Source of the DNA: Candidatus Enterousia sp.
GTDB taxonomy: Bacteria; Pseudomonadota; Alphaproteobacteria; Rs-D84
NCBI GenBank assembly: GCA_045645065.1
Contig: JAZRIB010000012.1
Location: forward strand, 5,282 to 69,281
Length of the DNA stretch: 64,000 nt
Reading direction: 5' to 3'
Shown: one piece after another, positions 9,209 to 60,431 of the stretch
Layout: each line of letters opens with the position of its first letter
How positions within the stretch are numbered: position 1 is the stretch's first letter
Translations under genes and position numbers: made by a program
Notes under the pieces: model-generated
What the model saw: the letters and a program-made list of their open reading frames with translations, nothing else
What the model was told of the DNA's origin: nothing
Databases searched by the model: none

Positions 9209-11395
9209 TTATTCTCCTTGTGCTTCTTGCGATAAATTGTATGTTTCTTCCAAAATTTCTTGTTCAAAGCCGTAATCCAGCAGATCTTGTTCTGTATATT
9301 GAATCCCGGCTTCTCGCAGTGCCCCCCGGATTTTACAGACTGTTTTATTTCTTTCACCATGCTCGTACACACAATTATTTTTCTTCATATAATTGGTGAT
9401 GAATTGGTGTAGATCACAATCTGTGCGTGCGTTTGTTGGAAAATGGTAAGTGTTTTTTACAAAATGTTCTTTCTTGTATTCTTCTCGCCATCTCAATTGC
9501 ACCATGTTCTTGTCATCGCATAGCAATTCTTGCAGCTTTCCTGTGTCGTGGCGTATGATCCTAGGTCGCCGCGTTAGACGTGCCGGATCATTACAGGCTT
9601 TATCTGCATGTGTCAAATCCAGTTTTTTTGCTAAATGCTCCCATACGTACTTGTACTCGTCTACAGATGTCGGAATGTCTGACTTTTCCGGATCAAGTGC
9701 CACCATAATATGTATTGATTTTTTTCCACTAAAAACCGCACGATAAACAACGCCATTAGCTTGTAGCTTTTGCAGCTTTTCTTTTTGCCAAGCTAATGAT
9801 TCTTCGGTGGATTTGCCTGGGATGTCATCAATTTCGAAAAGAAAACGTTGCAAGTGCACATTGTTCTGGGTTCGGATCGTTTTGTGCCCTTCGGTTGGCT
9901 GCGATGACTTGAAATCGTTGATGCATTCAAATTCACCGACTGGCGATTCAGAGTACAGATCGAAGGGACGCTTTTCTGCTTTTAGGTTATCTGTAGGATC
10001 AGCGTCTAAAAAAGACAGATCCAACATTTCCGCCAGTTTATTGTAGGCTTCTAAATAGCTGTACCGCTGAACAGAATAAGTTGGGCACAAGTGATTCAGA
10101 ATATCATCTTTGCTGGTCAGGATTTCGTATTGATCTTTACCATTATCTTTTACATGGTTGTTGGCAATCAAATCCGTAATAATCGCATTGAATTCCTTCT
10201 GAGAAAAACTTCGCTTGCGTTTTGAAGTGTATACCCGGCAGTTGGCAGTTTTTATCATAATAGGTGGATATTCGTCTTTTATAGATTCTACATACCCCAT
10301 AAAAGAATCCCTAAATCCCCCGGTCATTTTGCGAGTGTTCAACAAGTCCATGTCCAAAGTTGTTACCATGTTTTCTCGGATAAATGTACTTTCAGAAAAT
10401 GTTTTTTTATTATCATTCTTTTTTGGAATTTTGGTAATTTGGTAATAATAAAAATAAGCCATCAAAATATTCTTGAATAACAGGCGTTTTTCTTCCGGTG
10501 TTACCTTTTCGTAGTTCAAAAAATCTTGGTAATTATCGGTATTTTTCTTTGGAATGGGGCATTCAGCAAACGGCAGAAAAGATATGCGGCGATCAACATT
10601 TGTTTTTAGCCTATGATTTGAAGCGCCAACAATACACGTTTTTACATCGTGTGATATAAAATCTTTTCCTTTTCTTTCATATCGTATTGTATTTTGTTCG
10701 ATCAAGTTTTTTAGCAGATCGTCCGCCAAATCAAAATCATTAGACCATTCATTGATGATGCTTAGGCCATCTATAAAATCGTTAGTCGAGTGAAAGCCCT
10801 GGCCGAATAGCCCTTTTGATGTAGTTTCAAGAGTTGGAAAACCGAGTTCTGCAACCGTTTCTTTTATAGCTTTTACACGAAACGTTTTGCCTGTATGACC
10901 TTCTGCAGAATAAAATAGCATCATGGTCGGTTCGATATCAAAATGTACGTCTGGAAATACGGTGTTTGATAAGTGTTTCAAAAAAGCATCAAACTTTACT
11001 AAGTTGTTATCAAATTCGCCGATTGTACTTGGACATAAGTACCAAGCTATAGCGCGCAGTACGTCTGTTTTTGTAGGACGCGGCATTAGTTCGAATTTTG
11101 CAAAAGCTTCATTCTTTTTTTCTTCTGCCATCTCTTTGATAAAAACGGGCAGTCTTGCGTCCATCGAATTTTTGATCAGAGTCAACAACTTGGAATCAGT
11201 CACTAAGCGATCCAATCGGATTTGGTCATTTTGTGACTTTTTACCATTTGTATCGTATATTGGATGTTTATGAATCCATTCTGTGATAAATTTTCTGGTA
11301 TCATCTATGTTGTGTTCGCGCGTTGCGGTAACCGGCAATAAACGATCAACAACATAGTCACAGACTTCGGTATATTTTATTGGGGATTTCTGCAT
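9209..11395 (-). CDS. Helicase-primase: N-terminal SF3/VirE-like P-loop ATPase plus C-terminal AEP (prim-pol)-like domain
   Basis: Walker A YSAEGHTGKT, Walker B LSIINEW and IVGASN in the first half. The second half has FLFEIDDIP, FSGKKSIHIMV and DKACNDPARLTRRP, resembling AEP motifs I-III. Confidence 0.65.
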   Translation of the reverse strand: MQKSPIKYTEVCDYVVDRLLPVTATREHNIDDTRKFITEWIHKHPIYDTNGKKSQNDQIRLDRLVTDSKLLTLIKNSMDARLPVFIKEMAEEKKNEAFAKFELMPRPTKTDVLRAIAWYLCPSTIGEFDNNLVKFDAFLKHLSNTVFPDVHFDIEPTMMLFYSAEGHTGKTFRVKAIKETVAELGFPTLETTSKGLFGQGFHSTNDFIDGLSIINEWSNDFDLADDLLKNLIEQNTIRYERKGKDFISHDVKTCIVGASNHRLKTNVDRRISFLPFAECPIPKKNTDNYQDFLNYEKVTPEEKRLLFKNILMAYFYYYQITKIPKKNDNKKTFSESTFIRENMVTTLDMDLLNTRKMTGGFRDSFMGYVESIKDEYPPIMIKTANCRVYTSKRKRSFSQKEFNAIITDLIANNHVKDNGKDQYEILTSKDDILNHLCPTYSVQRYSYLEAYNKLAEMLDLSFLDADPTDNLKAEKRPFDLYSESPVGEFECINDFKSSQPTEGHKTIRTQNNVHLQRFLFEIDDIPGKSTEESLAWQKEKLQKLQANGVVYRAVFSGKKSIHIMVALDPEKSDIPTSVDEYKYVWEHLAKKLDLTHADKACNDPARLTRRPRIIRHDTGKLQELLCDDKNMVQLRWREEYKKEHFVKNTYHFPTNARTDCDLHQFITNYMKKNNCVYEHGERNKTVCKIRGALREAGIQYTEQDLLDYGFEQEILEETYNLSQEAQGE

Positions 11396-47360: not shown

Positions 47361-47389
47361 TTGACTTTGATGTGAAAATATGATATACT
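47361..47389 (+). promoter_or_regulatory. Strong extended -10 promoter at the head of the phage-like cluster
   Basis: TTGACT, 17-nt spacer, TGaTATACT. Confidence 0.6.
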
Positions 47390-47415
47390 GATGCACATCA
47401 ACAGCAGAAATGATA

Positions 47416-47484
47416 TCCACAACGAAGGTTGGGGATTTTTTTTGTCTGTTTTTTTACCCGTACAATTTTTGTGCGGGTTTTTTA
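47416..47484 (+). terminator. Two tandem intrinsic terminators inside the leader of the phage-like cluster
   Basis: TCCACAAC-gaag-GTTGGGGA plus T8 (47416-43), and ACCCGTAC-aattttt-GTGCGGGT plus T6 (47456-84). Both lie between the promoter and the first ATG. Confidence 0.55.
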
Positions 47485-47518
47485 TTTATCAAAAATCTAA
47501 ATGGGGGGATTGTCAGAA

Positions 47519-47929
47519 ATGAAATTACAACTGATAAAAAATCCGGACGAAACAAAAAAATTATCATATCAAATTGCACGTGTTGTCTATGCAGAAACAT
47601 CTGCGTCATCACTGCCCGCGGTCGAAGCAATGGTATCAATGATAAAAAACGCATCGCGTGCCACCGGGGTAAATATTGCACAAATAATATCTGATACCGA
47701 TATGTTTGAATCATTAAATGATACATCAATGCGTCATGAAATGTTGTCGGTCCCCCCATCAGATCGTGGTTTTCAAATGTGCCTGCGTGTTGTGTCGCGT
47801 ATGTTGGCGGGCGGGTTGCCGGATATGTGCCGTGGTGCGACACGTTTTCATCATGGTGACATATTACCAGATTGGGCGCGTACACGCGGCTATATACTAG
47901 ATATTGATGAATTATTATTTTACTTGTAA
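47519..47929 (+). CDS. Cell wall hydrolase (SleB/Hydrolase_2-like)
   Basis: IARVVYAETSA..AMVSMIKN..RGATRFHHGDILPDWA..LLFY pattern. Confidence 0.65.
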   Translation: MKLQLIKNPDETKKLSYQIARVVYAETSASSLPAVEAMVSMIKNASRATGVNIAQIISDTDMFESLNDTSMRHEMLSVPPSDRGFQMCLRVVSRMLAGGLPDMCRGATRFHHGDILPDWARTRGYILDIDELLFYL

Positions 47930-47944
47930 TGGAATAAATTAAAT

Positions 47945-48142
47945 ATGAACAAATTTTTTAATGGTGGATTCCTGAACGGTTATCGCACATACATTATGTC
48001 TGGCGTTGGAATATTATCTGCGATTGCAGCATATATTGTCGGGGATACAGATATATTTATAATGTTGCAAAATATTTTTACACTGGGTGGAATTTACTTC
48101 TTACGCAAATCAAATGAACCAAAGGAAAAAACAAATGGATAA
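47945..48142 (+). CDS. Small membrane protein (holin-like by position)
   Basis: 65 aa, two hydrophobic segments, charged C-terminus. Sits next to the hydrolase. Confidence 0.4.
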   Translation: MNKFFNGGFLNGYRTYIMSGVGILSAIAAYIVGDTDIFIMLQNIFTLGGIYFLRKSNEPKEKTNG

Positions 48143-48791
48143 AATTCCAGAAAAATTTTTGAATGACGATGGAACGTTAAACGCAACTGCGCTATTAAAA
48201 TCATATTCTGAATTAGAAAAAAAGATTGGCACAATGATAACCGTACCAACAGATGACAGTGATGAAAATGTTCGCACACGTTTTAATCGCGCAATTGGTG
48301 TACCGCAATCAGCGAATGAATATCCAACAAATGAATTGTTTGATGATGAAAATCTAAAAAATAAATTTCACGAAATTGGATTAACAACACACCAAGTTGA
48401 AAAAATTTATTCTATTGCAAATGAAATTCTTGCGCCTGTGATATCAGAATTATATGCAATGCAAAATGAAAAAAACGCAATCACAGAATTAAAAAAATTT
48501 TTTGGTGACAATGAAAAAATGAATGATGCGTTGCGTGCCATTGAAGCGTTTGGTAAACAATATTTACCAGTCGATGCGTTTGATGAATTGTGTTCCTCGC
48601 CCCAGGGAATCCAAGGTGTTTATCGAATGATGCAATCAATGGAACCAAATGTTGAAACAGAAAAAAATGAAATAAAAAATTTATCAGATTCTGATTTGCG
48701 ACGTATGATGCGTGACCCAAAATATTGGCGTGATGGTGATACAGAATACATTCGCAAAATAGAAAATGGATTTAAAAAATTATATTCATAA
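48135..48791 (+). CDS. Capsid scaffolding/assembly protein (T7 gp9-like)
   Basis: Start moved to MDKIPEKFLNDDG. C-terminal LRRMMRDPKYWRDGDTEYIRKIENGF parallels the T7 gp9 tail MIKAMSDPRYRTDANYRRQVEQKV (recalled). Confidence 0.7.
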   Translation: MDKIPEKFLNDDGTLNATALLKSYSELEKKIGTMITVPTDDSDENVRTRFNRAIGVPQSANEYPTNELFDDENLKNKFHEIGLTTHQVEKIYSIANEILAPVISELYAMQNEKNAITELKKFFGDNEKMNDALRAIEAFGKQYLPVDAFDELCSSPQGIQGVYRMMQSMEPNVETEKNEIKNLSDSDLRRMMRDPKYWRDGDTEYIRKIENGFKKLYS

Positions 48792-48895
48792 GAAAAAATA
48801 TCACTTTCTTCTTTACTATTTTTTGATATTCATATAAAATACACAGTAAGAACAAAACAGATTTGTTCTATTTAAAAAATAGAAAGGAGAGGAAT

Positions 48896-49357
48896 ATGGC
48901 ATTCAGCCTGTTTAAGAAATCTGCTAAGAAAGCAGTTGCAAAACCAGTTGCAAAAAAAGAACCAGCAAAAAAACCAGTTGCAAAAAAAGCGCCTGCAAAA
49001 AAAGTAGCAGCAAAACCAGTTGCAAAGAAAGCACCTGCGAAAAAAGTAGCGGCAAAACCAGTTGCAAAGAAAGCACCTGCGAAAAAAACAGCAGCAAAAC
49101 CAGTTGCAAAGAAAGCACCTGCAAAAAAAGTAGCAGCAAAACCAGTTGCAAAGAAAGCACCTGCAAAAAAAGTAGTTGCAAAACCAGTTGCAAAGAAAGC
49201 ACCTGCAAAAAAAGTAGCGGCAAAACCAGTTGCAAAGAAAGCACCTGCGAAAAAAGTAGCAGCAAAACCAGTTGCAAAGAAAGTACCTGCGCAAAAAGTA
49301 GCAGTAAAACCATGTGCAAAAAAAGCATGTGCAAAAAAATGCGCAAAAAAGAAATAA
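48896..49357 (+). CDS. Histone H1-like Lys/Ala/Pro repeat protein with Cys-rich tail
   Basis: GGAGAGG RBS. About eight tandem [14 protein letters not shown] units. Tail [16 protein letters not shown]. Confidence 0.7.
48941..49306 (+). repeat. 42-nt coding tandem repeat (about 8 full units plus degenerate lead-in)
   Basis: aaaccagttgcaaagaaagcacctgcgaaaaaagtagcggca repeated head-to-tail with few substitutions. Confidence 0.9.
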
Positions 49358-49379
49358 TATAATTCATATTATTAATAAG

Positions 49380-49448
49380 CCCGGACAAACGTCCGGGTTT
49401 TGTTTTCTAAAAATTCAGTCAGATAAATTCCAGTCTGACTGAATTTTT
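49380..49448 (+). terminator. Two consecutive hairpins between the H1-like gene and the capsid gene
   Basis: CCCGGAC-aaac-GTCCGGG plus Ts, then a perfect 15-bp inverted repeat AAAAATTCAGTCAGA..TCTGACTGAATTTTT. Confidence 0.6.
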
Positions 49449-49573
49449 ATTGCGGACAAGTCTTGCCACCCCGCATTTATTTTTTATGTACACGGCGCAA
49501 TTTGCATAACCGTTACATAAATTTATCGCGCGTATGCGCTTTTTTGTATTTTAATCAAACAAAGGAAATAAAT

Positions 49574-50401
49574 ATGTCCGTTTCAATTGACCAGGTTTTC
49601 GTAAAACAATTCGAAGCCGATGTTCATTTGGCCTATCAACAGATGGGTACAAAACTGCGTTCTACTGTTCGCAGCAAATCAGGTGTTGTTGGTGCGTCCA
49701 CTACATTCCAAAAAGTTGGTCGTGGCACCGCCAGCACAAAATCACGTCACGGTATTGTTCCAGTGATGAATTTGAATCATGAACCTGTTGAATGTATGTT
49801 GACTGATTACTATGCCGGTGATTGGGTTGACGCATTAGATGAATTAAAAGTTAACATTGACGAACGTCGTGTTGTTGCGTCTGCGGGTGCGTATGCATTG
49901 GGACGCAAAACAGACGAATTAATCATTGATGCAATGAACGCATCAACATTATCTGTTGGTGATTATTCCACGGGCTTAACCAAAGATTTGATTTTGTCTG
50001 CGGTTGAAGTTTTGAATACAAACGATGTTCCTGATGATGGTCGTCGCTTTGCAGTTATTGGTGTGCACCAGTGGAATGAATTGCTGGCGATGGATGAATT
50101 TGTATCAGCGGATTATGTTGGTGATGCAAAAACATTGGTAAATGGTTTCGAAGCAAAAAAATGGTTGGGTATCACATGGGTATTGCATAATGGTTTACCT
50201 GTATCTGAATCAAATCGCGATTGCTTTATATATCACGCATCCAGCATCGGTCATGCATGCGGCCAAGAAGTCAAGACAGATATTTCATGGCACGGTGAAC
50301 GTGCGGCGCACTTTATCAGCAACAGTATGTCCCAAGGTGCAGTTTTAATCGATAACGATGGTATTGTACGTGTCAAGTGCAGTGATGCGCCTGCTGCATA
50401 A
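49574..50401 (+). CDS. Major capsid protein (T7 gp10-like, HK97 fold)
   Basis: Start moved to MSVSIDQVFVKQFEADVHLAY. Pattern parallels the T7 gp10 N-terminal region (FLKVFGGEVLTAF..). Position follows the scaffold gene. Confidence 0.75.
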   Translation: MSVSIDQVFVKQFEADVHLAYQQMGTKLRSTVRSKSGVVGASTTFQKVGRGTASTKSRHGIVPVMNLNHEPVECMLTDYYAGDWVDALDELKVNIDERRVVASAGAYALGRKTDELIIDAMNASTLSVGDYSTGLTKDLILSAVEVLNTNDVPDDGRRFAVIGVHQWNELLAMDEFVSADYVGDAKTLVNGFEAKKWLGITWVLHNGLPVSESNRDCFIYHASSIGHACGQEVKTDISWHGERAAHFISNSMSQGAVLIDNDGIVRVKCSDAPAA

Positions 50402-50439
50402 CGTGCCACAAATATATTTTTAACCAAAGGATAAAACTT

Positions 50440-50673
50440 ATGGCATTTCAAAATAAAAATTTGTCGGTTATTGCATATGCGAATGGATTTACATTGTGGC
50501 ACTATGCGTCCACAACAGAAAGCATTGCAACGATTTCATCGACGGGATACTTTAACGATGTCAAGACATTGATGAATATTGGTGACGTTGTAATTATTAA
50601 CGCATCTGATAACACATCGATAAAGAAAATTAACATCACAGCCAGCAACGTTACAACCGGTGCATTGGCATAA
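50440..50673 (+). CDS. Small head-module protein, unknown
   Basis: 77-aa ORF directly after the capsid gene. Confidence 0.4.
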   Translation: MAFQNKNLSVIAYANGFTLWHYASTTESIATISSTGYFNDVKTLMNIGDVVIINASDNTSIKKINITASNVTTGALA

Positions 50674-50742
50674 ATTTTTATTCAAACGGTGGTGTAATTT
50701 TACACCACCGCGAATTTATAAATAATTACAGTGGGGACAATT

Positions 50743-51261
50743 ATGCTTACAAAAATAGACTTGTGTTCCATGGCGTTACTGAAACTAGGCGAAGCGCCTA
50801 TTCAATCATTCAGTGATGATACAGCCACTGCACAATTGGCACGAACACTATTTGAACCCGTTACAGATGCATTAATTGCATTGCATCCATGGCGTTTTGC
50901 AACCCGACACATTGATTTAGTCCGCAACACGGATGGTGATTTTTTAATACCATCTGATGTATTGCGCGTATTGACCCCAGGGGGTGATGTTGTTGGTAAC
51001 AAAATTATTGCATCAACAGATAAAATCACGATATCAGCATGCACGCGTGTCGGTATAGATTCTTATCCGGGATATTTTGTTTCATTGGTGGCAACTAAAC
51101 TGGCAATGGAATTTTGTATTCCGTTATTGGGCGACCAGACCGTGTTCAGAATGTTAGCAGCATTGTATGAAACAGAATTGCAATCTGCTAAATTTATCGA
51201 CAGTACAACCGCCCCCAGTACAAAAATAGATAATTTTTCATTGATTAATGCACGGTTTTAA
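50743..51261 (+). CDS. Tail tubular protein A (T7 gp11-like)
   Basis: LCSMALLKLGEAPIQSFSDDTATAQLARTLF..LHPWRFA parallels T7 gp11 [38 protein letters not shown] (recalled). Confidence 0.65.
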   Translation: MLTKIDLCSMALLKLGEAPIQSFSDDTATAQLARTLFEPVTDALIALHPWRFATRHIDLVRNTDGDFLIPSDVLRVLTPGGDVVGNKIIASTDKITISACTRVGIDSYPGYFVSLVATKLAMEFCIPLLGDQTVFRMLAALYETELQSAKFIDSTTAPSTKIDNFSLINARF

Positions 51262-51273
51262 CGGGGGGGTAAA

Positions 51274-52989
51274 ATGGCAAATTTTATAAACACACAAAGT
51301 TCTTTTGCATATGGTGCTGTGTCACCTGAATTTTTTTGCCGTGATAATATTGATGGGTTATCAAAACTAGAAAATATGGACGTATTATCAGGTGGTGGTT
51401 TAACACGTCGATGCGGTCTGGAACATATTGCCACATTACAAGACAATGCGCGTCTGGTTTCGTTTTCTGTATCAGAACACGAAAATTATATTCTGGCGAT
51501 AATGTCGGGGCATATGCTTATTTATTCTGGCAACAAACTTGTTGGGGATTTATTTGTACCGTGGTCTGGGGGCGATTTAATGCGCCTGCAATATGCTCAA
51601 CGTTTTGATACGATAATATTTGTTCATCCAGACTATCCGCCACAAATCCTGACCAAGTCGCCCAGTGGTTTTGAAATAACAGATTTTATATTTGCACGTA
51701 ACGATTCTGATATGTCTGTGAATATACCGTTTATGCGGTTCGAAGACAGTCGTGACATAAAAATATCAGTTTCAACCAGTGACCGTGGCAATAATTATGC
51801 TAAATTTACCACAGATACTGATTTTTGGACGCCGGCGTATGTTGGAAATCGTTTGCTGTTATTGGATAAACAATGGCAGATAGAAGAATTTATCAGCCCA
51901 ACCGAAGTAATTGGATACATCAATGGTACATACAGTGTGCCAAGTAATTATGTGTCTGATTGGTACGAATCCGCGTTCAGTAAGGCTCGCGGTTGGCCAT
52001 GCAGTATCACATTTCACCAAGACAGACTGGTATTTGGTGGTTCGCGATCATATCCGTCTGGGGTATGGATGTCCCGTGTCGGACAACATAATAATTTTGA
52101 TGTTGGAACCGGTCTGGATGACGAAGCGATATTTATAACGCTGCTTTCACAACAGCGTCAGCAAATTTGTACCGTGGTCAGTGGTGATAACCTGCAAATT
52201 CTGACCACTGATGGGGAATGGGCGATTTCCAGTAAGCCATTAACACCGTCATTGGTCGATATAAAACAGCACACATCAGTCGGCAGTAACGCTACACGAT
52301 ATCTGCCACCGCAAAAGATAGAAGGTGCAACTGTATTCGTATCAAAAACAATGCGCGATATTCGGGAATTATCCTTGGATGATTTAGGTCAAAACTATAA
52401 TGCGACTGATTTATGTGCATTTGCAAAACACTTGATAACAAATCCTGTTGATATTGCATATAACGACGCAACGAACCAGTTATTTGTGGTTACAGATGAT
52501 GGCAATATGTCGGTGTTAAATCAGAACAGTGCGCTGGGGATTTCTGCATGGGGTCAATACAAAACATATGGAAAATTTATGTCAGTTGTGGTGACTGATG
52601 GCATAACATACGTTGTGACAATGCGCGATGGTGCATATAATCTGGAATGTTTTTCGCGTGCTGTATTAAACGATGCAAATAAATATGATTTTGCATTTTG
52701 CGCCCAATCTTTGCCATTTCGCGTATCGAATCACAATGTGTCACGCTTGCGCATACGCAAAGTTTCCGTGCGCCTATTAAATACGAAATCAGTATTTATA
52801 AACGGCACACGTGTTTCATTGCCAGATTCGATATATTCTGAAAATCATACGGGGTATTCAGGGGACGTGTCCATAAATTTACTGGGCACATCGGAATCGT
52901 GCATCACACCATATTGGACTATACACGGAAATGAACCGTATCCAATTACAGTGTTGTCGGTGTCTGTTTCTGGTGGATACAGTATTTAA
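51274..52989 (+). CDS. Tail tubular protein B (T7 gp12-like), by position and size
   Basis: 571-aa ORF immediately after the gp11-like gene. No motif I can verify. Confidence 0.5.
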   Translation: MANFINTQSSFAYGAVSPEFFCRDNIDGLSKLENMDVLSGGGLTRRCGLEHIATLQDNARLVSFSVSEHENYILAIMSGHMLIYSGNKLVGDLFVPWSGGDLMRLQYAQRFDTIIFVHPDYPPQILTKSPSGFEITDFIFARNDSDMSVNIPFMRFEDSRDIKISVSTSDRGNNYAKFTTDTDFWTPAYVGNRLLLLDKQWQIEEFISPTEVIGYINGTYSVPSNYVSDWYESAFSKARGWPCSITFHQDRLVFGGSRSYPSGVWMSRVGQHNNFDVGTGLDDEAIFITLLSQQRQQICTVVSGDNLQILTTDGEWAISSKPLTPSLVDIKQHTSVGSNATRYLPPQKIEGATVFVSKTMRDIRELSLDDLGQNYNATDLCAFAKHLITNPVDIAYNDATNQLFVVTDDGNMSVLNQNSALGISAWGQYKTYGKFMSVVVTDGITYVVTMRDGAYNLECFSRAVLNDANKYDFAFCAQSLPFRVSNHNVSRLRIRKVSVRLLNTKSVFINGTRVSLPDSIYSENHTGYSGDVSINLLGTSESCITPYWTIHGNEPYPITVLSVSVSGGYSI

Positions 52990-53022
52990 TCAACAAACTA
53001 AACACAAAAAAGGAAATTTATT

Positions 53023-53370
53023 ATGGGACAACTTGTATCAGATGTCAGTGAAATCTTGGTTTATCAAGACGAAAAAAAACAGGCAAAAAACGCTCGCCAA
53101 GAAATATTGCGACAAATGGCGACAGACCAAGCCGAAAAAACAAATCTGGTTAAAAAGGTTTTGGCAACCCAGCGTGCAAAATATGGCGCATCTGGCGTGT
53201 CATCGCGTGGCATGACCCAGGGGGCTGTACTGGCGCGGTTAAAATCAGAAACCGAACAGCCGTATACTGAAAAACGTAACGCGAATTTGAAAAAATTAAA
53301 ATCAACACGTGCCAAGAAACCTAATTTATTAAAAACAATATTGTCGCGTTTTGATGACTTAGTCGGCTAG
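53023..53370 (+). CDS. Small basic coiled-coil protein (possible internal virion protein)
   Basis: 115 aa, K/R/Q-rich. Position is equivalent to T7 gp13-16 but far smaller. Confidence 0.35.
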   Translation: MGQLVSDVSEILVYQDEKKQAKNARQEILRQMATDQAEKTNLVKKVLATQRAKYGASGVSSRGMTQGAVLARLKSETEQPYTEKRNANLKKLKSTRAKKPNLLKTILSRFDDLVG

Positions 53371-53385
53371 GAATAGGGGGGATTT

Positions 53386-53934
53386 ATGTATAAAATATCT
53401 TATATCGCAGATGGTGCAACAACTGAATTTGAATTTGCGTTCCCTTTTTTCCAGTCGGCTGATATTCATGTTGCGATAAACGAACGTGTATTGACCCCAG
53501 ACGAATATTCTGTTGTCGAAAATACAACTTTTGATGGTGGGCGTGTTGTGTTTAATGACGCGCCAATCTTGGACAGTCGCATAGATATTTATCGTATTGT
53601 TGCATTGTCGCGTGTTGTCGATTACCAGCCAACCGCAAAAATAGACCCAGAACATCTGAATGCGGATTTTAATTTTTTAATTGAAGCCTTAAAAGATATA
53701 CACGCCCCAAATGTTGACATAGAAGCATGGCGTAATGTTCATACGAATACAGTTGCGTTCTTGGAATATACCAATGATTTAATCCAAGATAAATTAACCG
53801 GTGGCGGCACATTAGGGATTTTCAAGAATCTGCTATCTGTACTGGATAATGCATTACCAAAATTGATTAATGATTATGGATATATAACCGATGATGCCCC
53901 AATCAATACGCGCGATGATTACGGTTTACTGTAA
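53386..53934 (+). CDS. Tail fibre N-terminal (tail-attachment) domain protein, T7 gp17-N-like, lacking a distal receptor-binding part
   Basis: YKISYIADGATTEFEFAFPFFQSADIHVAINERVL..IDIYRIV..VDYQP..LNADFNFLIEA matches the gp17 N-domain pattern. Only 182 aa. Confidence 0.65.
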   Translation: MYKISYIADGATTEFEFAFPFFQSADIHVAINERVLTPDEYSVVENTTFDGGRVVFNDAPILDSRIDIYRIVALSRVVDYQPTAKIDPEHLNADFNFLIEALKDIHAPNVDIEAWRNVHTNTVAFLEYTNDLIQDKLTGGGTLGIFKNLLSVLDNALPKLINDYGYITDDAPINTRDDYGLL

Positions 53935-53938
53935 TTTT

Positions 53939-54520
53939 ATGGACGAATGGAATCGTGTTCTGGGACAGACGACACCGGCGCATCATCGACAAATAATGAA
54001 TTTTTTAGTAGATGTTATAAACGATGATATGCATCGTGGATTGTTGATGGCGTTTCGTCATTCTGGCAAATCCACGGTCGTTGGAATTTTTGCAGCCTGT
54101 ACGTTATATATGTTTCCCAGCACCAGAATATTGATTTTATCTGCGCACAATACATTGGCGACACGTATGGTTGGGCACATCCGTCATATTTTGGAAAACC
54201 ATCCGTGGTGTTCTGAATTAATTCCTGTATCACGACGTGATTGGGCCACTGGCCATATAACAATAAACAGACCAATTGGGATTCGTGAACCGTCTGTTAT
54301 ATGCCAGGGTATCCATGGCAATATTACCGGTATGCGCGCAGACCTTATCATATGTGATGATATAGAAGTTCCAAATACATCAAACACTCCACAAAAGCGG
54401 GAAAATCTGCGTGAAAGATTACGCGAATTGGATTTTATCTTGTCGCCCAGTGGCACGATGATTTACATTGGTACACCGCATACCATGGATACAATATATC
54501 GCACAGACAGAACAGACTAG
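53939..54520 (+). pseudogene. Terminase large subunit, N-terminal ATPase half (interrupted)
   Basis: Walker A AFRHSGKST, Walker B LIICDDIEVP, coupling motif IGTPHT. Reads 7 aberrant codons (RTDRTD*) after ..MDTIY. Confidence 0.8.
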
Positions 54521-55173
54521 GCAACGTCTTCGCTTTTTATAGAACTGATAAATGTGCGCAGGCGCGTCAACAAATCGTCTCCGGCATTTCCAAACATCGG
54601 CAGGTACGTTTCATATTCTGGCATATCTGCTTGGATTTCTGCACGTGTACGTTCATCCAATGGTGTATTAATAATTTTATTTGCCGTATCCCATAACTGA
54701 TATGCGCGATATGTTTGTTTAACAATAAACCATTTTTTCTGCATATCTGGATAACTGCCCAGTGCATCATGAATTGCATTCGCCCATTCTTCACCGAAAC
54801 GACGAACGATATTCAAACGTTCGATTTTTTCTAATCCGGCCTGATCGGGGGTAAATTCTGCCAACACAGATTGTAATTCGTTCAAATCTTTTTGTGACAA
54901 TGTCGTATTTGTTAAATTTGATTGGGTCATCAAACCGCCATACGGTATCAAATCAGGTTCAATAGAATCCATAGGTGTTTTGCCGCTGCGCAGATTTTCA
55001 ATATGTCTGATAAGCATTTTGCCTGTTGGCATTTCGCGCAATTCTTTGATAACGTCATCTGTTGCTTCTGATACCAACACAGGGTTAACTGTTGCCCAAC
55101 CACCGATGATAACATGTTCTTGTCGGTACAGATTTAATAATCTTTGTGCGGTTGCCGCAATTCGTGCTTTCAT
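54517..55173 (-). CDS. Hypothetical protein (218 aa)
   Basis: Last gene of the inserted block. Its stop overlaps the aberrant terL-N stop in CTAG. Confidence 0.45.
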   Translation of the reverse strand: MKARIAATAQRLLNLYRQEHVIIGGWATVNPVLVSEATDDVIKELREMPTGKMLIRHIENLRSGKTPMDSIEPDLIPYGGLMTQSNLTNTTLSQKDLNELQSVLAEFTPDQAGLEKIERLNIVRRFGEEWANAIHDALGSYPDMQKKWFIVKQTYRAYQLWDTANKIINTPLDERTRAEIQADMPEYETYLPMFGNAGDDLLTRLRTFISSIKSEDVA

Positions 55174-55210
55174 ATTATGCCTCTCTCACTCTGGTACGGA
55201 ATCTGTTGCG

Positions 55211-56218
55211 TTATTCCATAACAATCATAATAATTTTATGCATTGTTTGTGCGCTAATTTTTTCTTCTGGGCTGACCATTTGTCCGTATATTTTCCCTTT
55301 AGAATCTTGGCGTACAGTTGCGATTTGTGCGCTAAGATTTGTTTCAGAATCCAACGCATTGAAATCAGTATCAATAAATACCGCCAAATCCCCCACCGCC
55401 ACAGGTGCGTCAATGTCTGCAAACAGGTATGATTTTTCAGGGATAAAACCACCCAAACGTTTAGAATTCGGTATCACTGCGTATATGCCACTGCGTCCTT
55501 CCAGTGAACTTGGCGCAACAATCATTGTTTTGTCAGATTTTTTGAATGTGATTGATTTGCCAGATGGTGTTCCAAACACAGGCACTAATTTTTTACGCGC
55601 GCTATCATACAGTTTTGCACCGTATAACCCACCACTCATATCAATACTTGATAACGGGTTTCCGGGTTCCAGAACAGATTTCACACGTTCTTTGACTTTG
55701 TTAATATGTTTGTTCAAATCACCGCTTTTATACAGCATTGCGATTTTATCAAACATACTTTCCACCGTCATTGCGAACGATTTTGCCAACGGTTCGATTT
55801 CATTTTCATATATTTCGCGTTGTCCAACTTCGATTTTATGATACACAGACAACGTCATACCTGCATCTTTGGCGGCGCGTGCAATTGTTTTTCCAGTTTG
55901 TTGACGAATACGGCGCAAACCACTGCCGAAAATTTTCAGACCACCATCTTCGTTATCGTTCAGACGGCGTTTAATTTCTGTTTGCCATTGTTCAGCTACT
56001 TCATCAGATTCTTTGATGAAAATATCAGATAATTTACAACCCAAAATATTACAGATATTTAACAACTGTTTCTGGTTCAGACGACGAACGCCCTTTTCAA
56101 TTTTGGAAACAGCTGACAAAGACAACCCAGCACGACGTGCCAATTCTGTCATTTTCATGCCGTTTTTCAATCGAATATTTCTGATATTATTTGGAAAAAT
56201 AATTTCTTCTTGGGCCAT
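55211..56218 (-). CDS. XRE-family regulator with two HTH domains and a CI/LexA (S24)-like C-terminal domain (tentative)
   Basis: Start moved to MAQEEIIF. IRNIRLKNGMKMTELARRAGLSLSAVSKIEKG and LRRIRQQTGKTIARAAKDAGMTLSVYHKIEVG. C-terminal beta-rich region VPVFG..VGDLAVFID. Confidence 0.65.
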   Translation of the reverse strand: MAQEEIIFPNNIRNIRLKNGMKMTELARRAGLSLSAVSKIEKGVRRLNQKQLLNICNILGCKLSDIFIKESDEVAEQWQTEIKRRLNDNEDGGLKIFGSGLRRIRQQTGKTIARAAKDAGMTLSVYHKIEVGQREIYENEIEPLAKSFAMTVESMFDKIAMLYKSGDLNKHINKVKERVKSVLEPGNPLSSIDMSGGLYGAKLYDSARKKLVPVFGTPSGKSITFKKSDKTMIVAPSSLEGRSGIYAVIPNSKRLGGFIPEKSYLFADIDAPVAVGDLAVFIDTDFNALDSETNLSAQIATVRQDSKGKIYGQMVSPEEKISAQTMHKIIMIVME

Positions 56219-56290
56219 TGTGCAACTCCTTAAAAACAATCTTGACAAAATAATAGTCAATTTTTAAGACTTGCGCAAGTAAATAATCAC

Positions 56291-57847
56291 TTACAATGGC
56301 ATATCGTCTGGAATTGCATCAATATCAATTGGTGTTGGTGAAAATTCAGAACCATCCAGCGGAACACTGGTTGCAGGTTGTGGTGCGATATTTTCGCCAC
56401 GTGTATCAAATTCATCTGGCAAATTATCGAACAAACTATAATCACCAAAGAACGCCGTGCGTACTGTTTCTGGGCGACCGTGACGGTTTTTCCCGATGAT
56501 AATATCAGCCTTGCCACGTGATTGTTCGTATCGTTTTTGCCATGATTCAACCATCGAAGAATTTGTCGTGTTTGAAATACGTTCTGACGGGTTACGGTTC
56601 GCCAGATAGTATTCTTCACGGTACGTGAACATAACGATGTCAGCGTCTTGTTCAATAGACCCTGATTCACGCAAGTCTGCCAACTGTGGGCGTTTGTCAT
56701 CACGTTGTTCAACGCTACGTGACAACTGGGACAGTGCGATAACAGGTACGTCTAATTCTTTGGCTAACATTTTTAGCCCTCGTGTGATTTCAGAAATTTC
56801 CTGAACACGATTGTCGTTACGTTTTCCCCCCGGCGACGTCATCAGCTGCAGATAGTCCACCACAATCAATGACACGCCACCATATTTACGTGCCAAACGA
56901 CGTGCGCGTGTACGCATCATTGGAACCGACATACCTGGTGTATCGTCGATACACAATGGAATTTTGCTGATTGCATCGGCATATTGTTGCATTTTCAACA
57001 TGTCTTCATCCGTCAGGCTACCTTCACGCATCGCCGATGCTGGAACTTTGGACTGGGATGACAGAACACGTGCTGCCAATTGTGAATGTGACATTTCAAG
57101 GCTGAAAAATATAACCGCACCTTTGTAATTTTTATTTGCCATACCATAATGGATTGCGTTGGCGGCATTAAATGCGATATTCATAGCCAGTGTTGTTTTA
57201 CCCATTGCTGGACGACCTGCAACGATGATTAAATCAGAATGATGTAAACCACTTATTGATTTATCCAGTGCGGTCAGTCCTGTTGTCAAACCAGACAACT
57301 GTCCATCGGCCTTGTATGCTGTTTCTGCTTCCTGTAAGGCTGCCTTTAATGCGGTTTCAATTGAAACGGCATCGCGTTCAGACGAACCAGTGGTCGCCAT
57401 ATCAAATAATTTTTGTTCTGCAACTTCTATCTGGCGGTTAACAGGATTATCCAGGTCTTCGACAAATGCGTTATCCATAATATCCTGGGCCAGGTTAATT
57501 AATTGTCGTCTTTGTGCGTTTTCATATACGATACGCCCGTATTGTTCAACATTAACGACGGTTGCGCCCGCCCCAGACAACTGGGTTAAATAATCCACCC
57601 CACCAACGGATTCTAATACCCCCTGTTGTTCAAGGTATGTTTTTGCTGTAATGATGTCAAATGGGATGCCTGCGGCAAATTGACGTTCCGCCAGTTTATA
57701 AATCTCTTGGTGGGCGGGGTGCGAAAAATGTTCCGCGGTCAAGAATTCAGACACACGTTCCAATGCGCGATTGTTCATTAATACAGCGGCCAGTACTGCC
57801 TGTTCTGCTTCCAGATTGGTTGGCAAAGTCTTAGGGGTAAAATCCAT
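56291..57847 (-). CDS. dnaB: Replicative DNA helicase DnaB (cellular, alphaproteobacterial type)
   Basis: Start moved to MDFTPKTLPTNLEAEQAVLAA (the longer ORF overlaps terL-C). GRPAMGKTT Walker A, LIVVDYLQLM, ALSQLSR, ADLRESGSIEQDAD. Insertion between Y..EYY and GKNRHG is typical of alpha-type DnaB. Confidence 0.9.
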   Translation of the reverse strand: MDFTPKTLPTNLEAEQAVLAAVLMNNRALERVSEFLTAEHFSHPAHQEIYKLAERQFAAGIPFDIITAKTYLEQQGVLESVGGVDYLTQLSGAGATVVNVEQYGRIVYENAQRRQLINLAQDIMDNAFVEDLDNPVNRQIEVAEQKLFDMATTGSSERDAVSIETALKAALQEAETAYKADGQLSGLTTGLTALDKSISGLHHSDLIIVAGRPAMGKTTLAMNIAFNAANAIHYGMANKNYKGAVIFFSLEMSHSQLAARVLSSQSKVPASAMREGSLTDEDMLKMQQYADAISKIPLCIDDTPGMSVPMMRTRARRLARKYGGVSLIVVDYLQLMTSPGGKRNDNRVQEISEITRGLKMLAKELDVPVIALSQLSRSVEQRDDKRPQLADLRESGSIEQDADIVMFTYREEYYLANRNPSERISNTTNSSMVESWQKRYEQSRGKADIIIGKNRHGRPETVRTAFFGDYSLFDNLPDEFDTRGENIAPQPATSVPLDGSEFSPTPIDIDAIPDDMPL

Positions 57848-57872
57848 GTCAAAATCCTTTTCCTTAACGCCA

Positions 57873-58712
57873 ATGGTATATGAAAAAAATGCTTTTTCAA
57901 TGCCTTTTTTATCGGGATATAAATTGCTGAAAATTCCGATTGTTAGCGCCGATGGCACACCCGCATGGCCTGAACTTTTTCCGATTGCCAAGATTAATCA
58001 GATGCGTCAAATTGTGGGCCCCAGACATTTTTCAGCACAAATGATGCTGGAATTTGTGCCGACTGAACGTATACGACTGGACCCGGGGCAAATACACTTT
58101 TACGAAGATGTACTGGATATCCATAACGTGCGCCTGGGGACGCATTTGATAACGGGCGCGTCTGTATATTGGGATCCGTCCAGTGGTCGTCGCAAATCAG
58201 ACCACAGCGTATGTGTTTTGATATATCGCGATGATAAAAATCACAATGTCTTTATCCACGATGTAATGTATATGACGGTTGCGGATAATGAAACGCATCC
58301 ATTGAATACCCAATGTGAAATGGTTATCGAATTTATGCACCGATACGGTATGCGCCGAATAGCCATTGAAACAAACGGATTGGGGAATGCGTTGCCAGAA
58401 ATTATGTGTGATACCGCGGCGCGTTGTGGTCAAAACATCTATGTAAATAAAATTACAAATAATAAAAACAAGTCCGACCGAATTTTAGATGCGATTGAAC
58501 CATTATTGACATCGGGGCATCTGTATGCGCATACGCGTGTGCAATACACGCCATTACTGTCTGAAATGTTAGGCTGGTCGCCGGTGGGCGGGGTGGGGCA
58601 CGATGACGGTCTGGATGCGGTGGCGGGCGCAATAAGCACAACACCAATTGTAATTCATCGTGCGGGTGCGGGCGTTCGCCCAATATACGCAAATACGAAT
58701 TTCAAGATTTAA
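57873..58712 (+). pseudogene. Terminase large subunit, C-terminal half (linker + RNase H-like nuclease)
   Basis: ..YEKNAFSMPFLSGYKLLKIPIV..WPELFP..FSAQMMLEFVP..VYWDPSSGRRKSDHSV..IETNGLG..HDDGLDA parallels T7 gp19 from [18 protein letters not shown] onward (recalled). No RBS before any internal ATG. Confidence 0.8.
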
Positions 58713-58743
58713 CACAATCAAACAACAACCAAAAGGATAAAAA

Positions 58744-59973
58744 ATGCAATCAAACCTGCAACAATTATATAAACGTGCGCTGGATATGCGTGAACCGTGG
58801 TTGCGCCGCTGGTCGGATGCGCGTAAATATACAATGCCTGAAACAGACGAAGATATGGCAAACCTGTTTGACGCAACAGCATCCGATGCGGCCGATAATC
58901 TGGCGGCGTCACTGTACACGTTATTAACGCCCCCAGAATCATTGTGGCTGACCCTGGTGCCGGAAAGTGATTTATCACCCGATGCAAATTCTGCAACAAA
59001 TGCATTGCGTGCAAATTTGAATGATTCTAATTTTTATACAACCGTACACCAGTGTTATTTAGATTTGGTAACATTGGGGACGGCGTGCCTGTTTATGTCT
59101 GAAAATCCGATTGGCGCAGCGTCTGCTTTTTCATTCACATCGATTCCGATGTCAGATATTGCAATTTTACCAAACGCGGTATTCCATACAACATCAATGC
59201 CATTGTCCGACGCGGTTAAAAAGTATCCAACATGGTGCATGCCAAAAAATCTGCGTGACGCATTGGCGGAAAACCCAGATATGCCAATAAAATTGGTACA
59301 AAGTCTGGTTGGTACGGAATTTACAGCATGGTTGGATGCTGGTGGCGACATAGAAAACAATATTGTCGCAACAGGTACATTTGAAACGAATCCATATTTG
59401 ATATTCCGTTGGTCGGTATTGTCTGGCGAAATCTATGGGCGGGGGCCGATTTTGCGTGCATTGCCAGATATTAAAACTGCAAACAAAGTGGTTGAATTAG
59501 TTCTGAAAAACGCGACTATTTCAGTATCTGGTATCTGGATGGCGGACGATGACGGTGTAATTAATTTGAATAACATCAACCTAACCCCGGGCGCGATTAT
59601 TCCTAAGGCGGTTGGTTCATCGGGTCTGACCCCATTGACCAGTGGTGCAAACTTTGACGTATCCCAGATTATATTAAAAGATTTGCGCGAACGTATTCGT
59701 CACGCATTACTGGCAGACAGACTGGGGTTATTATCCGAAAAAGAAATGACCGCCACCGAAATTATGGCGCGTAACAGTGATATGATGCGAATTTTGGGTG
59801 CGACATACGGACGTTTACTGCACGAATTTATACGTCCATTGTGTGAACGTGGTCTGCAAATCTTGGGGCGTCGCGGTGTGATTGAACCGATTACATTGAA
59901 CGGGGATGCAGAATTAAAATATATCGCGCCAATTGCCCAAATGGTTGCAATGGAAAGTGTTATGGGGGTATAA
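58744..59973 (+). CDS. Portal / head-to-tail connector protein (T7 gp8-like)
   Basis: LYKRALDMREPWLRRWSDARKYTMP..ADNLAASLYTLLTPPESLWLTL and C-terminal MTATEIMARNSDMMRILGATYGRLLHEFIRPL parallel T7 gp8 blocks (recalled). Confidence 0.8.
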   Translation: MQSNLQQLYKRALDMREPWLRRWSDARKYTMPETDEDMANLFDATASDAADNLAASLYTLLTPPESLWLTLVPESDLSPDANSATNALRANLNDSNFYTTVHQCYLDLVTLGTACLFMSENPIGAASAFSFTSIPMSDIAILPNAVFHTTSMPLSDAVKKYPTWCMPKNLRDALAENPDMPIKLVQSLVGTEFTAWLDAGGDIENNIVATGTFETNPYLIFRWSVLSGEIYGRGPILRALPDIKTANKVVELVLKNATISVSGIWMADDDGVINLNNINLTPGAIIPKAVGSSGLTPLTSGANFDVSQIILKDLRERIRHALLADRLGLLSEKEMTATEIMARNSDMMRILGATYGRLLHEFIRPLCERGLQILGRRGVIEPITLNGDAELKYIAPIAQMVAMESVMGV

Positions 59974-59976
59974 AAA

Positions 59977-60171
59977 ATGGCGGATAATATCGAGCGCGAT
60001 TTTGCACGTACGTTTTGCACCCCATCTGGTGCGCGGGTGCTGGCGCATTTGCGTAAAATAACGATTGAACGTGTGCTGGGGGCTAATGCAACAGATGCGG
60101 TATTACGCGGGTTGGAAGCCCAGCGGTCGTTAATCCATCAAATTGAAAATTTAACAAAGCGGGGGAAATAG
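59977..60171 (+). CDS. Small phage protein, Bbp19-like (tentative)
   Basis: FARTFCTPSGARVLAHLRKIT..LEAQRSLIHQIENL resembles the Bbp19-like phage domain from memory. Confidence 0.35.
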   Translation: MADNIERDFARTFCTPSGARVLAHLRKITIERVLGANATDAVLRGLEAQRSLIHQIENLTKRGK

Positions 60172-60173
60172 CC

Positions 60174-60431
60174 ATGACAACGCAACCCAGTGCCGCGGGG
60201 CTTCTGGATTTTTTACGCGACAGTTGGTTTTTAATCGCCTTTATTGCGGGTGTAATCTACTGGGTTGCGCGCCAAGATTCATCTCTGGCGGAAATCCAGC
60301 GTGCTGATGCGCGCATAACATCACTTGAAAATCGTACAACGGTCTTGGAAACGGGAATAGGGCAGATTCAAATAAAAATAGACGATATCAAAGAAGACCT
60401 GAACCTTATCAAAAGCGCCGTTATAAAGTGA
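60174..60431 (+). CDS. Membrane-anchored coiled-coil protein
   Basis: One TM segment (WFLIAFIAGVIYWV) followed by a heptad-rich tail. Confidence 0.4.
   Translation: MTTQPSAAGLLDFLRDSWFLIAFIAGVIYWVARQDSSLAEIQRADARITSLENRTTVLETGIGQIQIKIDDIKEDLNLIKSAVIK

Follow-up and report, generated by a model that had tools for sequence, protein, structure and literature searches.

A large terminase gene divided around dnaB in a T7-like particle cluster of Candidatus Enterousia

Large terminases are regarded as single-chain, two-domain motors. How, then, should a chromosomal locus be read in which the two parts of a T7-type large terminase gene, terL, stand on either side of the replicative helicase gene dnaB? 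The locus lies in a 64-kb stretch of contig JAZRIB010000012.1 from Candidatus Enterousia sp., hereafter the window, whose numbering is used for all positions given without a locus name. Here a T7-like particle cluster of ~13 kb (47501..60431) is flanked by birA on one side and rpsD on the other (Table 1). A preliminary description of this DNA had reported terL-N, a ~3.4-kb minus-strand block and terL-C in that order, and its coordinates and content were upheld by the sequence and by searches of the window proteins against Pfam, PHROGs and NCBIfam (RNA families were searched in Rfam). We consider it probable, at roughly 0.7, that an ancient fission produced a two-polypeptide terminase in a vertically inherited, domesticated T7-like cluster resembling a gene transfer agent (GTA).

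Two halves of terL and the position of the break

TerL-N carries the motifs RHSGKST, LIICDDIE and IGTPHT and ends in MDTIYRTDRTD before its stop codon; the TerL sequence picks up again at VYEKNAFSMPFL and continues to 58712. On the T7 large terminase profile NF033889 (termin_lrg_T7), TerL-N matches positions 10–191 and TerL-C positions 231–500. TerL-N scores 218 bits, above the cut-off of 150. TerL-C alone reaches 98 against this full-length model, below 150 as expected for half a protein, and its nuclease passes the cut-offs of both PF22530 and PF17289. Walker A and Walker B are kept in 71 of 73 TerL-N orthologs, and WDP, ETNG and HDDGLD, the motifs of the nuclease, do not vary among the aligned TerL-C homologs. 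One TerL-C homolog (P0006, 402 aa) contains a tandem duplication of ~120 nuclease-domain residues, which is either an assembly artefact or real.

The preliminary description also held that nothing was lost where terL is split, and this proved correct. Intact homologs read ..GTPHTxxTIY(Q/K)xD..GFLxGW.. across the break; TerL-N keeps TIYRTD, TerL-C begins (M/I)VYEKNAFSTPFLxGY, and (I/V)Y is present in both halves at the junction. When the conceptual fusion was aligned to intact homologs of 462–500 aa, no residues were missing. In silico deletion of 54500..57881 does give an in-frame product of 463 aa, as had been claimed, but the restored frame is trivial because both halves keep in-frame (I/V)-Y codons.

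The break had been placed precisely at the ATPase/nuclease junction, and here the structural comparison disagrees. The intact homolog P0095 was modelled with AlphaFold2 (56-sequence alignment, pLDDT 90), and in a Foldseek comparison the model matched the terminases of PhiV-1/T7, T4, HK97, Sf6 and D6E; crystal constructs of the isolated P74-26 ATPase domain align with it over ~271 columns. In this model the break falls in a 22-residue coil (188–209) right after the motif-III strand (178–187). Past the break come short strands (210–216), helices that include the QMMLEP motif (230–249) and, from ~265, the nuclease. Profile alignment of T7 gp19 puts the break at about residue 210, ~85 residues before FTLQFMLNP. 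As modelled, the split sits within the ATPase domain, in the loop after motif III and ~65 residues upstream of the ATPase/nuclease junction. Because the break is inside the ATPase domain, the lid subdomain, which by position and fold alignment would correspond to helices 230–249, would be carried with the nuclease half. The lid caps the active site and is a proposed force-generating lever (PMC5389665). A nucleotide-binding core on one chain and a force-transmitting lid with nuclease on another would bear on models of the coupling, through the lid, between ATP hydrolysis and the movement of DNA.

Relatives of the locus were sought in one genome per species. A relative was present in 547 genomes, and the best 80 of these were inspected; all 80 are gut metagenome-assembled genomes (MAGs), labelled Candidatus Enterousia or (uncultured) Alphaproteobacteria, with contigs of up to 430 kb. 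Synteny was established by tblastn of the window proteins against the 80 loci, of which 73 span the whole block. Every sufficiently long locus shares one gene order: capsid, tube A, tube B, gp14-like, fibre-N, terL-N, the minus-strand genes unk218, HTH2 and dnaB, terL-C, portal, Bbp19 and p85. The search among relatives for an intact terL, which the preliminary description had proposed, had a divided outcome: intact terL exists in other Alphaproteobacteria, but all sufficiently long loci among the 80 are split alike.

TerL-C identity across the 80 loci is 59–87%. Instead of the single polypeptide of T7-type large terminases, all 73 block-spanning loci have two open reading frames (ORFs) with 3.3 kb of opposite-strand genes between them. 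In each, the conserved part of TerL-N closes with GTPHxxDTIY(R/K/Q/N)x; a brief tail, mostly acidic and differing between loci, leads from there to the stop codon, and TerL-C has its own start. Internal stops are absent from all 71 TerL-N and all 81 TerL-C copies. When the conceptual fusion was used as a protein query, the matches comprised more than 100 clusters in which TerL-C stands alone (279–288 aa, 60–99% identity, from uncultured Alphaproteobacteria) and just a few intact proteins of 468–472 aa (43–45% identity).

Selection was estimated by the Nei–Gojobori method as omega, the ratio of nonsynonymous to synonymous divergence (dS), in two sets of comparisons. In the closest nine loci (dS ~1.4–1.6), omega was 0.055 for terL-N and 0.093 for terL-C. 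In pairs with 0.1<dS<0.8 the values were 0.039 and 0.060, comparable to those of portal (0.046) and DnaB (0.031); dS is close to saturation in many pairs. Divergence of DnaB correlates with the pairwise divergence of the phage-derived genes (rho 0.36–0.74). Synteny and the left flank (birA) are conserved and omega lies between 0.03 and 0.14, consistent with the vertical inheritance and purifying selection expected of a GTA. As judged from the aligned loci, the terL split is ancient and clade-wide, and both halves are independently translated genes under purifying selection.

The opposite-strand block and its junctions with terL

DnaB passes two equivalog models over its full length (NF006606, 605.4 against a cut-off of 540; TIGR00665, 505 against 385) and fails the phage model TIGR03600, phage_DnaB (413 against 499). 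These scores bear out its earlier assignment to the cellular alphaproteobacterial type. It is the most conserved protein of the locus (80–96% identity, omega 0.025–0.031). No second dnaB copy was found within the 64-kb window, and an exact-sequence look-up of the window DnaB returned no match. In the window rplI is not near dnaB, and the classical rplI–dnaB neighbourhood could not serve as a guide.

HTH2 (omega 0.04) had been called CI/LexA-like, a label that we do not retain. It has no Pfam match to Peptidase_S24, its hhalign comparison with the S24 repressor of the intact clusters described below gave a probability of 1.6%, and the HTH2–unk218 operon is found elsewhere without phage genes. 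In other Alphaproteobacteria, this host operon consists of an HTH2 homolog (332–341 aa, 37–51% identity, full-length), an unk218 homolog, two unknown genes, a MacB/FtsX permease and an ABC ATPase; neither terL, dnaB nor phage genes were found near the pair on those relatives' contigs. Examples of the operon lie at L167 1..1329, L170 7976..13938 and L172 7953..13430, with GC contents of 31–55%, and some relatives of the pair have long acidic low-complexity inserts.

The unk218 family comprises at least 1237 homologs, annotated as hypothetical and lacking a Pfam domain. Searches of unk218 against Pfam, NCBIfam, PHROGs, PADLOC, PDB sequences and Foldseek gave nothing usable; the AlphaFold2 prediction is all-alpha (pLDDT 77). 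An exhaustive profile search recovered distant full-length relatives, also without Pfam or PHROG domains. As first described, the block contains no recombinase or transposase, and family and Rfam searches of it found no defence-system or RNA-family match either. Because DnaB passes cellular models and HTH2–unk218 is a host operon in other Alphaproteobacteria, we assign the block, on sequence grounds, to host DNA.

At the left junction, terL-N and unk218 meet stop to stop, and in 52 of 73 loci the two ORFs share exactly 4 nt. At the right junction, CATG is found in 78 of 79 loci, and the in-frame terL-C ATG (57846) overlaps the dnaB ATG by 2 nt. A Shine–Dalgarno (SD)-like GGGG/GGAG (GGNG) lies 8 nt upstream of the terL-C ATG, where it is the antisense of dnaB Thr-Pro codons. 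Since the CATG overlap and the SD-like site are conserved, terL-C probably starts at 57846 and is a self-standing gene of 288 aa.

The expectation that the dnaB promoter would lie inside terL-C was supported by a predicted site, TTGAAA-N16-TA(C/A)(C/T)AT, in 79 of 80 loci, wholly inside the first codons of terL-C. There, synonymous sites are frozen: third-codon-position entropy is 0.18–0.28 bits, the lowest window of the gene, compared with a median of 1.42 over the whole gene. The predicted −10 box stands at one of three discrete distances from the dnaB ATG, 7, 22 or 25 nt (window 57848..57872 and its equivalents in L001–L080). At 7 nt, the dnaB mRNA would be leaderless and TerL-C would start MSD-IVYKNF; the longer classes carry an AAGGA SD sequence. 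An essential replication gene with its promoter in terminase codons, and with a start codon that overlaps that of the terminase gene, would show coding and regulatory constraints superimposed to an extreme degree and in a form open to testing.

Since the start codons overlap and the dnaB promoter is inside terL-C, the dnaB and terL-C/portal mRNAs must overlap head to head. A generic terminator scan found no terminators at the block ends. Given that the genes at the left junction are convergent, with no space between them and no terminator-like site detected, transcripts of the particle genes must be antisense to those of the dnaB operon. Through the two overlaps, one head to head and one tail to tail, expression of the dnaB operon and of the particle genes may be set against each other. 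Regulatory coupling of terL-C and the particle genes to dnaB, and with it of particle production to replication, is possible, and the element may, as first proposed, owe its maintenance and perhaps its control to this layout. A bolder proposal is that the interleaving itself is functional, with a two-subunit terminase, antagonistic dnaB/HTH2 and particle expression that produces a bistable choice between replicating and producing, and a cluster that is hard to delete. We offer it tentatively and think it more probably wrong than right.

Origin of the split and alternative readings

We envisage that a chromosomal rearrangement in the clade ancestor put a 3.4-kb piece of host DNA, dnaB plus the HTH2–unk218 pair, into terL. 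The break would have hit a surface loop just past ATPase motif III. Since then, terL would have been kept as two genes with their own start and stop, one for the nucleotide-binding core and one for the lid and nuclease, and the two polypeptides would reassemble non-covalently into a packaging motor. The junctions would have been compacted to the limit, by the stop overlap at the left and by the start overlap and embedded dnaB promoter at the right. The cluster itself may make GTA-like particles. Enterousia (order Rs-D84) genomes measure 0.75–1.0 Mb (PMC12306168), and that genomes this small keep ~13 kb argues for function; such retention in hosts that include lineages with genomes below 1 Mb implies a benefit.

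Several observations weigh against ancient fission into a working two-chain terminase. Neither a complete tail fibre nor counterparts of the T7 core proteins gp15/gp16 were recognised in the cluster, and therefore DNA delivery may not be possible. A conserved sigma-70-like promoter for terL-C/portal was sought in the 180 nt upstream and not found, the best site occurring in 20 of 79 loci; within dnaB, nothing serving terL-C matched the conservation of the dnaB promoter. A generic promoter scan was not above chance (38 sites, 45 expected). In two loci, internal deletions fuse or truncate capsid, tube and terL-N (L015, 5640..6632; L022, 4918..6642 and 10867..11330, the latter locus with portal affected as well). 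Both retain the dnaB block and terL-C; particle genes can decay while the host block stays. Every related locus derives from MAGs, and the reassembly of the two chains is something that we infer.

The main rival is subfunctionalisation, in which the halves no longer form a packaging terminase and one or both are kept for another purpose, for example as a stand-alone nuclease or as an ATPase with other partners. TerL-C is the faster-evolving half, at nearly double the rate of TerL-N (mean p-distance 0.35 versus 0.19), the pairwise distances of the two are only moderately correlated (rho 0.43), and L015 keeps TerL-C and portal while its TerL-N and tube genes are truncated. Parting the ATP-binding core from the lid may also be hard for a motor to tolerate. 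However, portal, capsid, scaffold, tube and endolysin genes are conserved alongside the halves, purifying selection on them is just as strong, and all the catalytic motifs of ATPase and nuclease are retained. We regard this explanation as unlikely, although it is the one to be taken most seriously after ancient fission.

A second possibility is that the cluster is a decaying prophage remnant with an inactivated terL, whose conservation is only apparent and due to dnaB linkage or recent divergence. The absence of gp15/gp16-like genes would fit, as would the internal deletions in two loci and the single stops in a few HTH2 and portal copies. Against this, dS rises to 1–1.7 while omega stays at 0.04–0.14 for every phage-derived gene, and the 71 and 81 copies of the halves contain no stops; linkage cannot preserve amino-acid sequence. 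Furthermore, genomes smaller than 1 Mb do not retain 9–10 kb of dead DNA over dozens of species. Decay is thus very improbable as an account of the clade.

The preliminary description had considered capture of dnaB inside the phage gene and had proposed a search for excised forms. In an excision switch, the block would leave the chromosome in the manner of skin or SPbeta in terminally differentiating, particle-producing cells, which would rebuild an intact terL and remove dnaB. The conceptual deletion is in frame, and a cell bound to lyse could do without dnaB. Fixation of the arrangement in at least 73 species-level genomes, and purifying selection on each half, agree neither with a recent capture nor with such a switch. 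No recombinase is encoded in the block, and no conserved direct attachment-site (att) repeats were found at both junctions. TATAT (54495–99 and 57877–81), once taken for a target-site duplication, corresponds to ATA-TAT and GTA-TAT, that is, to (I/V)-Y codons. An identical 5-mer at both Y codons occurs in only 25 of 73 loci, and the longest common substring of the junction neighbourhoods averages 5.9 nt versus 6.2 nt in shuffled controls; both att repeats and a target-site duplication were therefore rejected. In addition, the halves now have separately evolved stop, start and SD signals, and the TerL-N tail varies by lineage. Nor does joining after transcription or translation rescue a switch. 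Rfam found no intron or other RNA family in the window, only two tRNAs, and a split intein was rejected because the tails are 3–20 aa and align directly to intact homologs (intein halves have ~100 and ~35 aa). We consider excision still less probable than decay.

Chimeric assembly or binning can be set aside as having next to no chance: all data come from MAGs, but the same architecture appears independently in ~80 assemblies, which stem from many projects and hosts and include contigs of up to 430 kb, with junctions shared to single-nucleotide precision.

The particle cluster, its relatives and known systems

The features of the cluster are listed in Table 1. No replication, integration or lysogeny module was found in the window cluster, and no candidate for the small terminase gene terS was recognised in the window.

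Table 1. Features of the T7-like cluster and the interrupting block (window positions)
Feature	Position	Strand	Remarks
Hydrolase_2 endolysin	47501..47929	+	
scaffold	48087..48791	+	
histone-H1-like gene	48897..49357	+	inserted
capsid	ORF 49463..50401	+	true start ATG ~49571 (MSVSIDQ..)
tail tube A	50731..51261	+	
nozzle/tube B	51274..52989	+	
gp14-like	53023..53370	+	
tail-fibre N-domain protein (fibre-N)	53386..53934	+	182 aa
terL-N	53939..54520	+	ATPase core with Walker A, Walker B, motif III GTP; alternative start ATG 53891
unk218	54517..55173	-	218 aa; conserved; last gene of dnaB operon
HTH2	55211..56218 (or 56260)	-	two XRE-type helix-turn-helix domains (HTH_3 x2) and uncharacterised C-terminal domain
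dnaB	56291..57847	-	cellular-type replicative helicase, 518 aa; Pfam DnaB and DnaB_C
terL-C	57846..58712	+	ATPase lid subdomain (predicted) and RNase-H-like nuclease; alternative start 57873
predicted dnaB promoter	57873..57900	-	TTGAAA-N16-TACCAT, within first codons of terL-C
portal	58744..59973	+	
Bbp19-like	59977..60171	+	
p85	60174..60431	+	85-aa membrane/coiled-coil protein

Pseudogenisation of the capsid gene was considered and rejected, since the apparent stops in its orthologs lie upstream of the true start, save at one locus (alignment position 121). With the H1-like gene, the particle cluster contains a further insertion of host-like (or DNA-condensing) character. This gene encodes a histone-H1/HC2-like, Lys/Ala/Pro-rich repeat protein between scaffold and capsid, with a strong SD sequence and a terminator-like hairpin (49377..49400); an equivalent ORF of 117–163 aa is present in 59 of 59 related loci, whereas the outgroup clusters with intact terL lack one. 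The interval 47361..47478, between birA and the endolysin, contains a promoter-like TTGACT-17-TATACT with TG and then a strong terminator-like hairpin (47456..47478), a layout that might need antitermination. The fibre-N protein is encoded directly upstream of terL-N, where intact clusters have an unrelated, acidic-tailed protein of 94–100 aa (L081 9721..10023), possibly a small terminase.

The intact-TerL family comprises 2760 proteins at E≤1e-10, on chromosomal contigs of up to 647 kb. Many uncultured Alphaproteobacteria carry intact clusters of ~9.5 kb in canonical T7 order: S24 repressor (minus strand), two small genes, portal, Bbp19, scaffold, capsid, tube A, nozzle, gp14-like, 94-aa gene, TerL, Hydrolase_2 and two small genes. 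Examples are L081 (1512..12309), L082, L083, L085, L087 and L088. These intact clusters contain no replication or integrase gene and their host flanks vary; we propose them as a candidate undescribed GTA-like family. Relative to this outgroup, the Enterousia form has portal–Bbp19 behind terL, the endolysin in front and the fibre-N protein in place of the 94-aa gene, and it has gained host genes. No homology was detected between unk218, p85 or the fibre-N protein and any outgroup cluster gene; the one exception in the comparison set was p115, which resembles the gp14-like protein. More distant relatives in IMG/VR, some of them in isolate genomes, have ~4.5 kb extra between nozzle and TerL and look like fuller prophages. 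The nearest TerL of a sequenced phage shares at most 30% identity. In L086, an intact 494-aa TerL (P0227, 56% identity) has a Phage_tail_APC gene and an SDH protease nearby and no T7-like portal or capsid; the TerL family therefore also serves other elements.

In the literature searches, neither this cluster nor a split terL was found described. Searches for split-terminase phrases were empty, and promising papers on jumbo phages and on phage 0305phi8-36 described no split terL. A widely conserved, T7-like domesticated particle cluster in uncultured Alphaproteobacteria thus appears to be undescribed. With large terminases viewed as single chains, a clade-conserved break within the ATPase domain would amount to an experiment performed by nature.

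The closest known systems in genomic setting are GTAs, including RcGTA, BaGTA and the podovirus-like, GTA-like element FpGTA of Faecalibacterium, first claimed in 2026 (PMC12946183). Like them, the Enterousia cluster is chromosomal and vertically inherited, has head, portal, terminase, tail and lysis genes under purifying selection, and lacks a replication or integration module. The structural module of the Enterousia cluster is T7-like (Autographiviridae-type TerL, portal, capsid, tube A/B) and not HK97-siphovirus-like, and it has no sequence relationship to RcGTA. The Enterousia cluster, known from its genes, also differs from GTAs in that host genes (the dnaB operon and the H1-like gene) are interleaved and the terminase is in two pieces.

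Split phage genes that work as two polypeptides include nrdA of Aeromonas phage Aeh1, split by mobE, and the T4 topoisomerase genes 39/60. As in terL, an insert interrupts an enzyme gene, the collinear fragments have their own starts and stops, and non-covalent assembly is presumed. The terL insert, in contrast, is opposite-strand host housekeeping DNA and not a homing endonuclease, and the terL split is fixed clade-wide in bacteria, not in one phage, and cuts the ATPase fold of a ring motor.

Within the same enzyme family, the herpesvirus terminase genes UL15 (HSV-1) and UL89 (HCMV) are also interrupted by several kb with genes on the other strand; the two exons lie around opposite-strand UL16–UL17 and are joined by mRNA splicing. 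The herpesvirus product is thus one polypeptide, and the position of its break differs from that in terL. Given that no intron RNA family was found in the window and that bacteria have no spliceosome, two terminase proteins are expected in Enterousia.

The skin element in sigK and SPbeta in spsM of B. subtilis, and 'active lysogeny' more generally, resemble the terL block in being interruptions of several kb whose removal restores a frame. The recombinase and att repeats of skin and SPbeta were sought at the terL block and not found, and the terL halves have independent translation signals. Finally, Listeria excludons are divergent, overlapping transcription units. The terL-C/dnaB pair is likewise a divergent arrangement with necessarily overlapping 5' transcripts, with overlapping start codons and the promoter of one gene inside the other. 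Whereas the arrangement at terL-C/dnaB is read directly from the DNA, mutual repression of the excludon kind is a hypothesis that it suggests.

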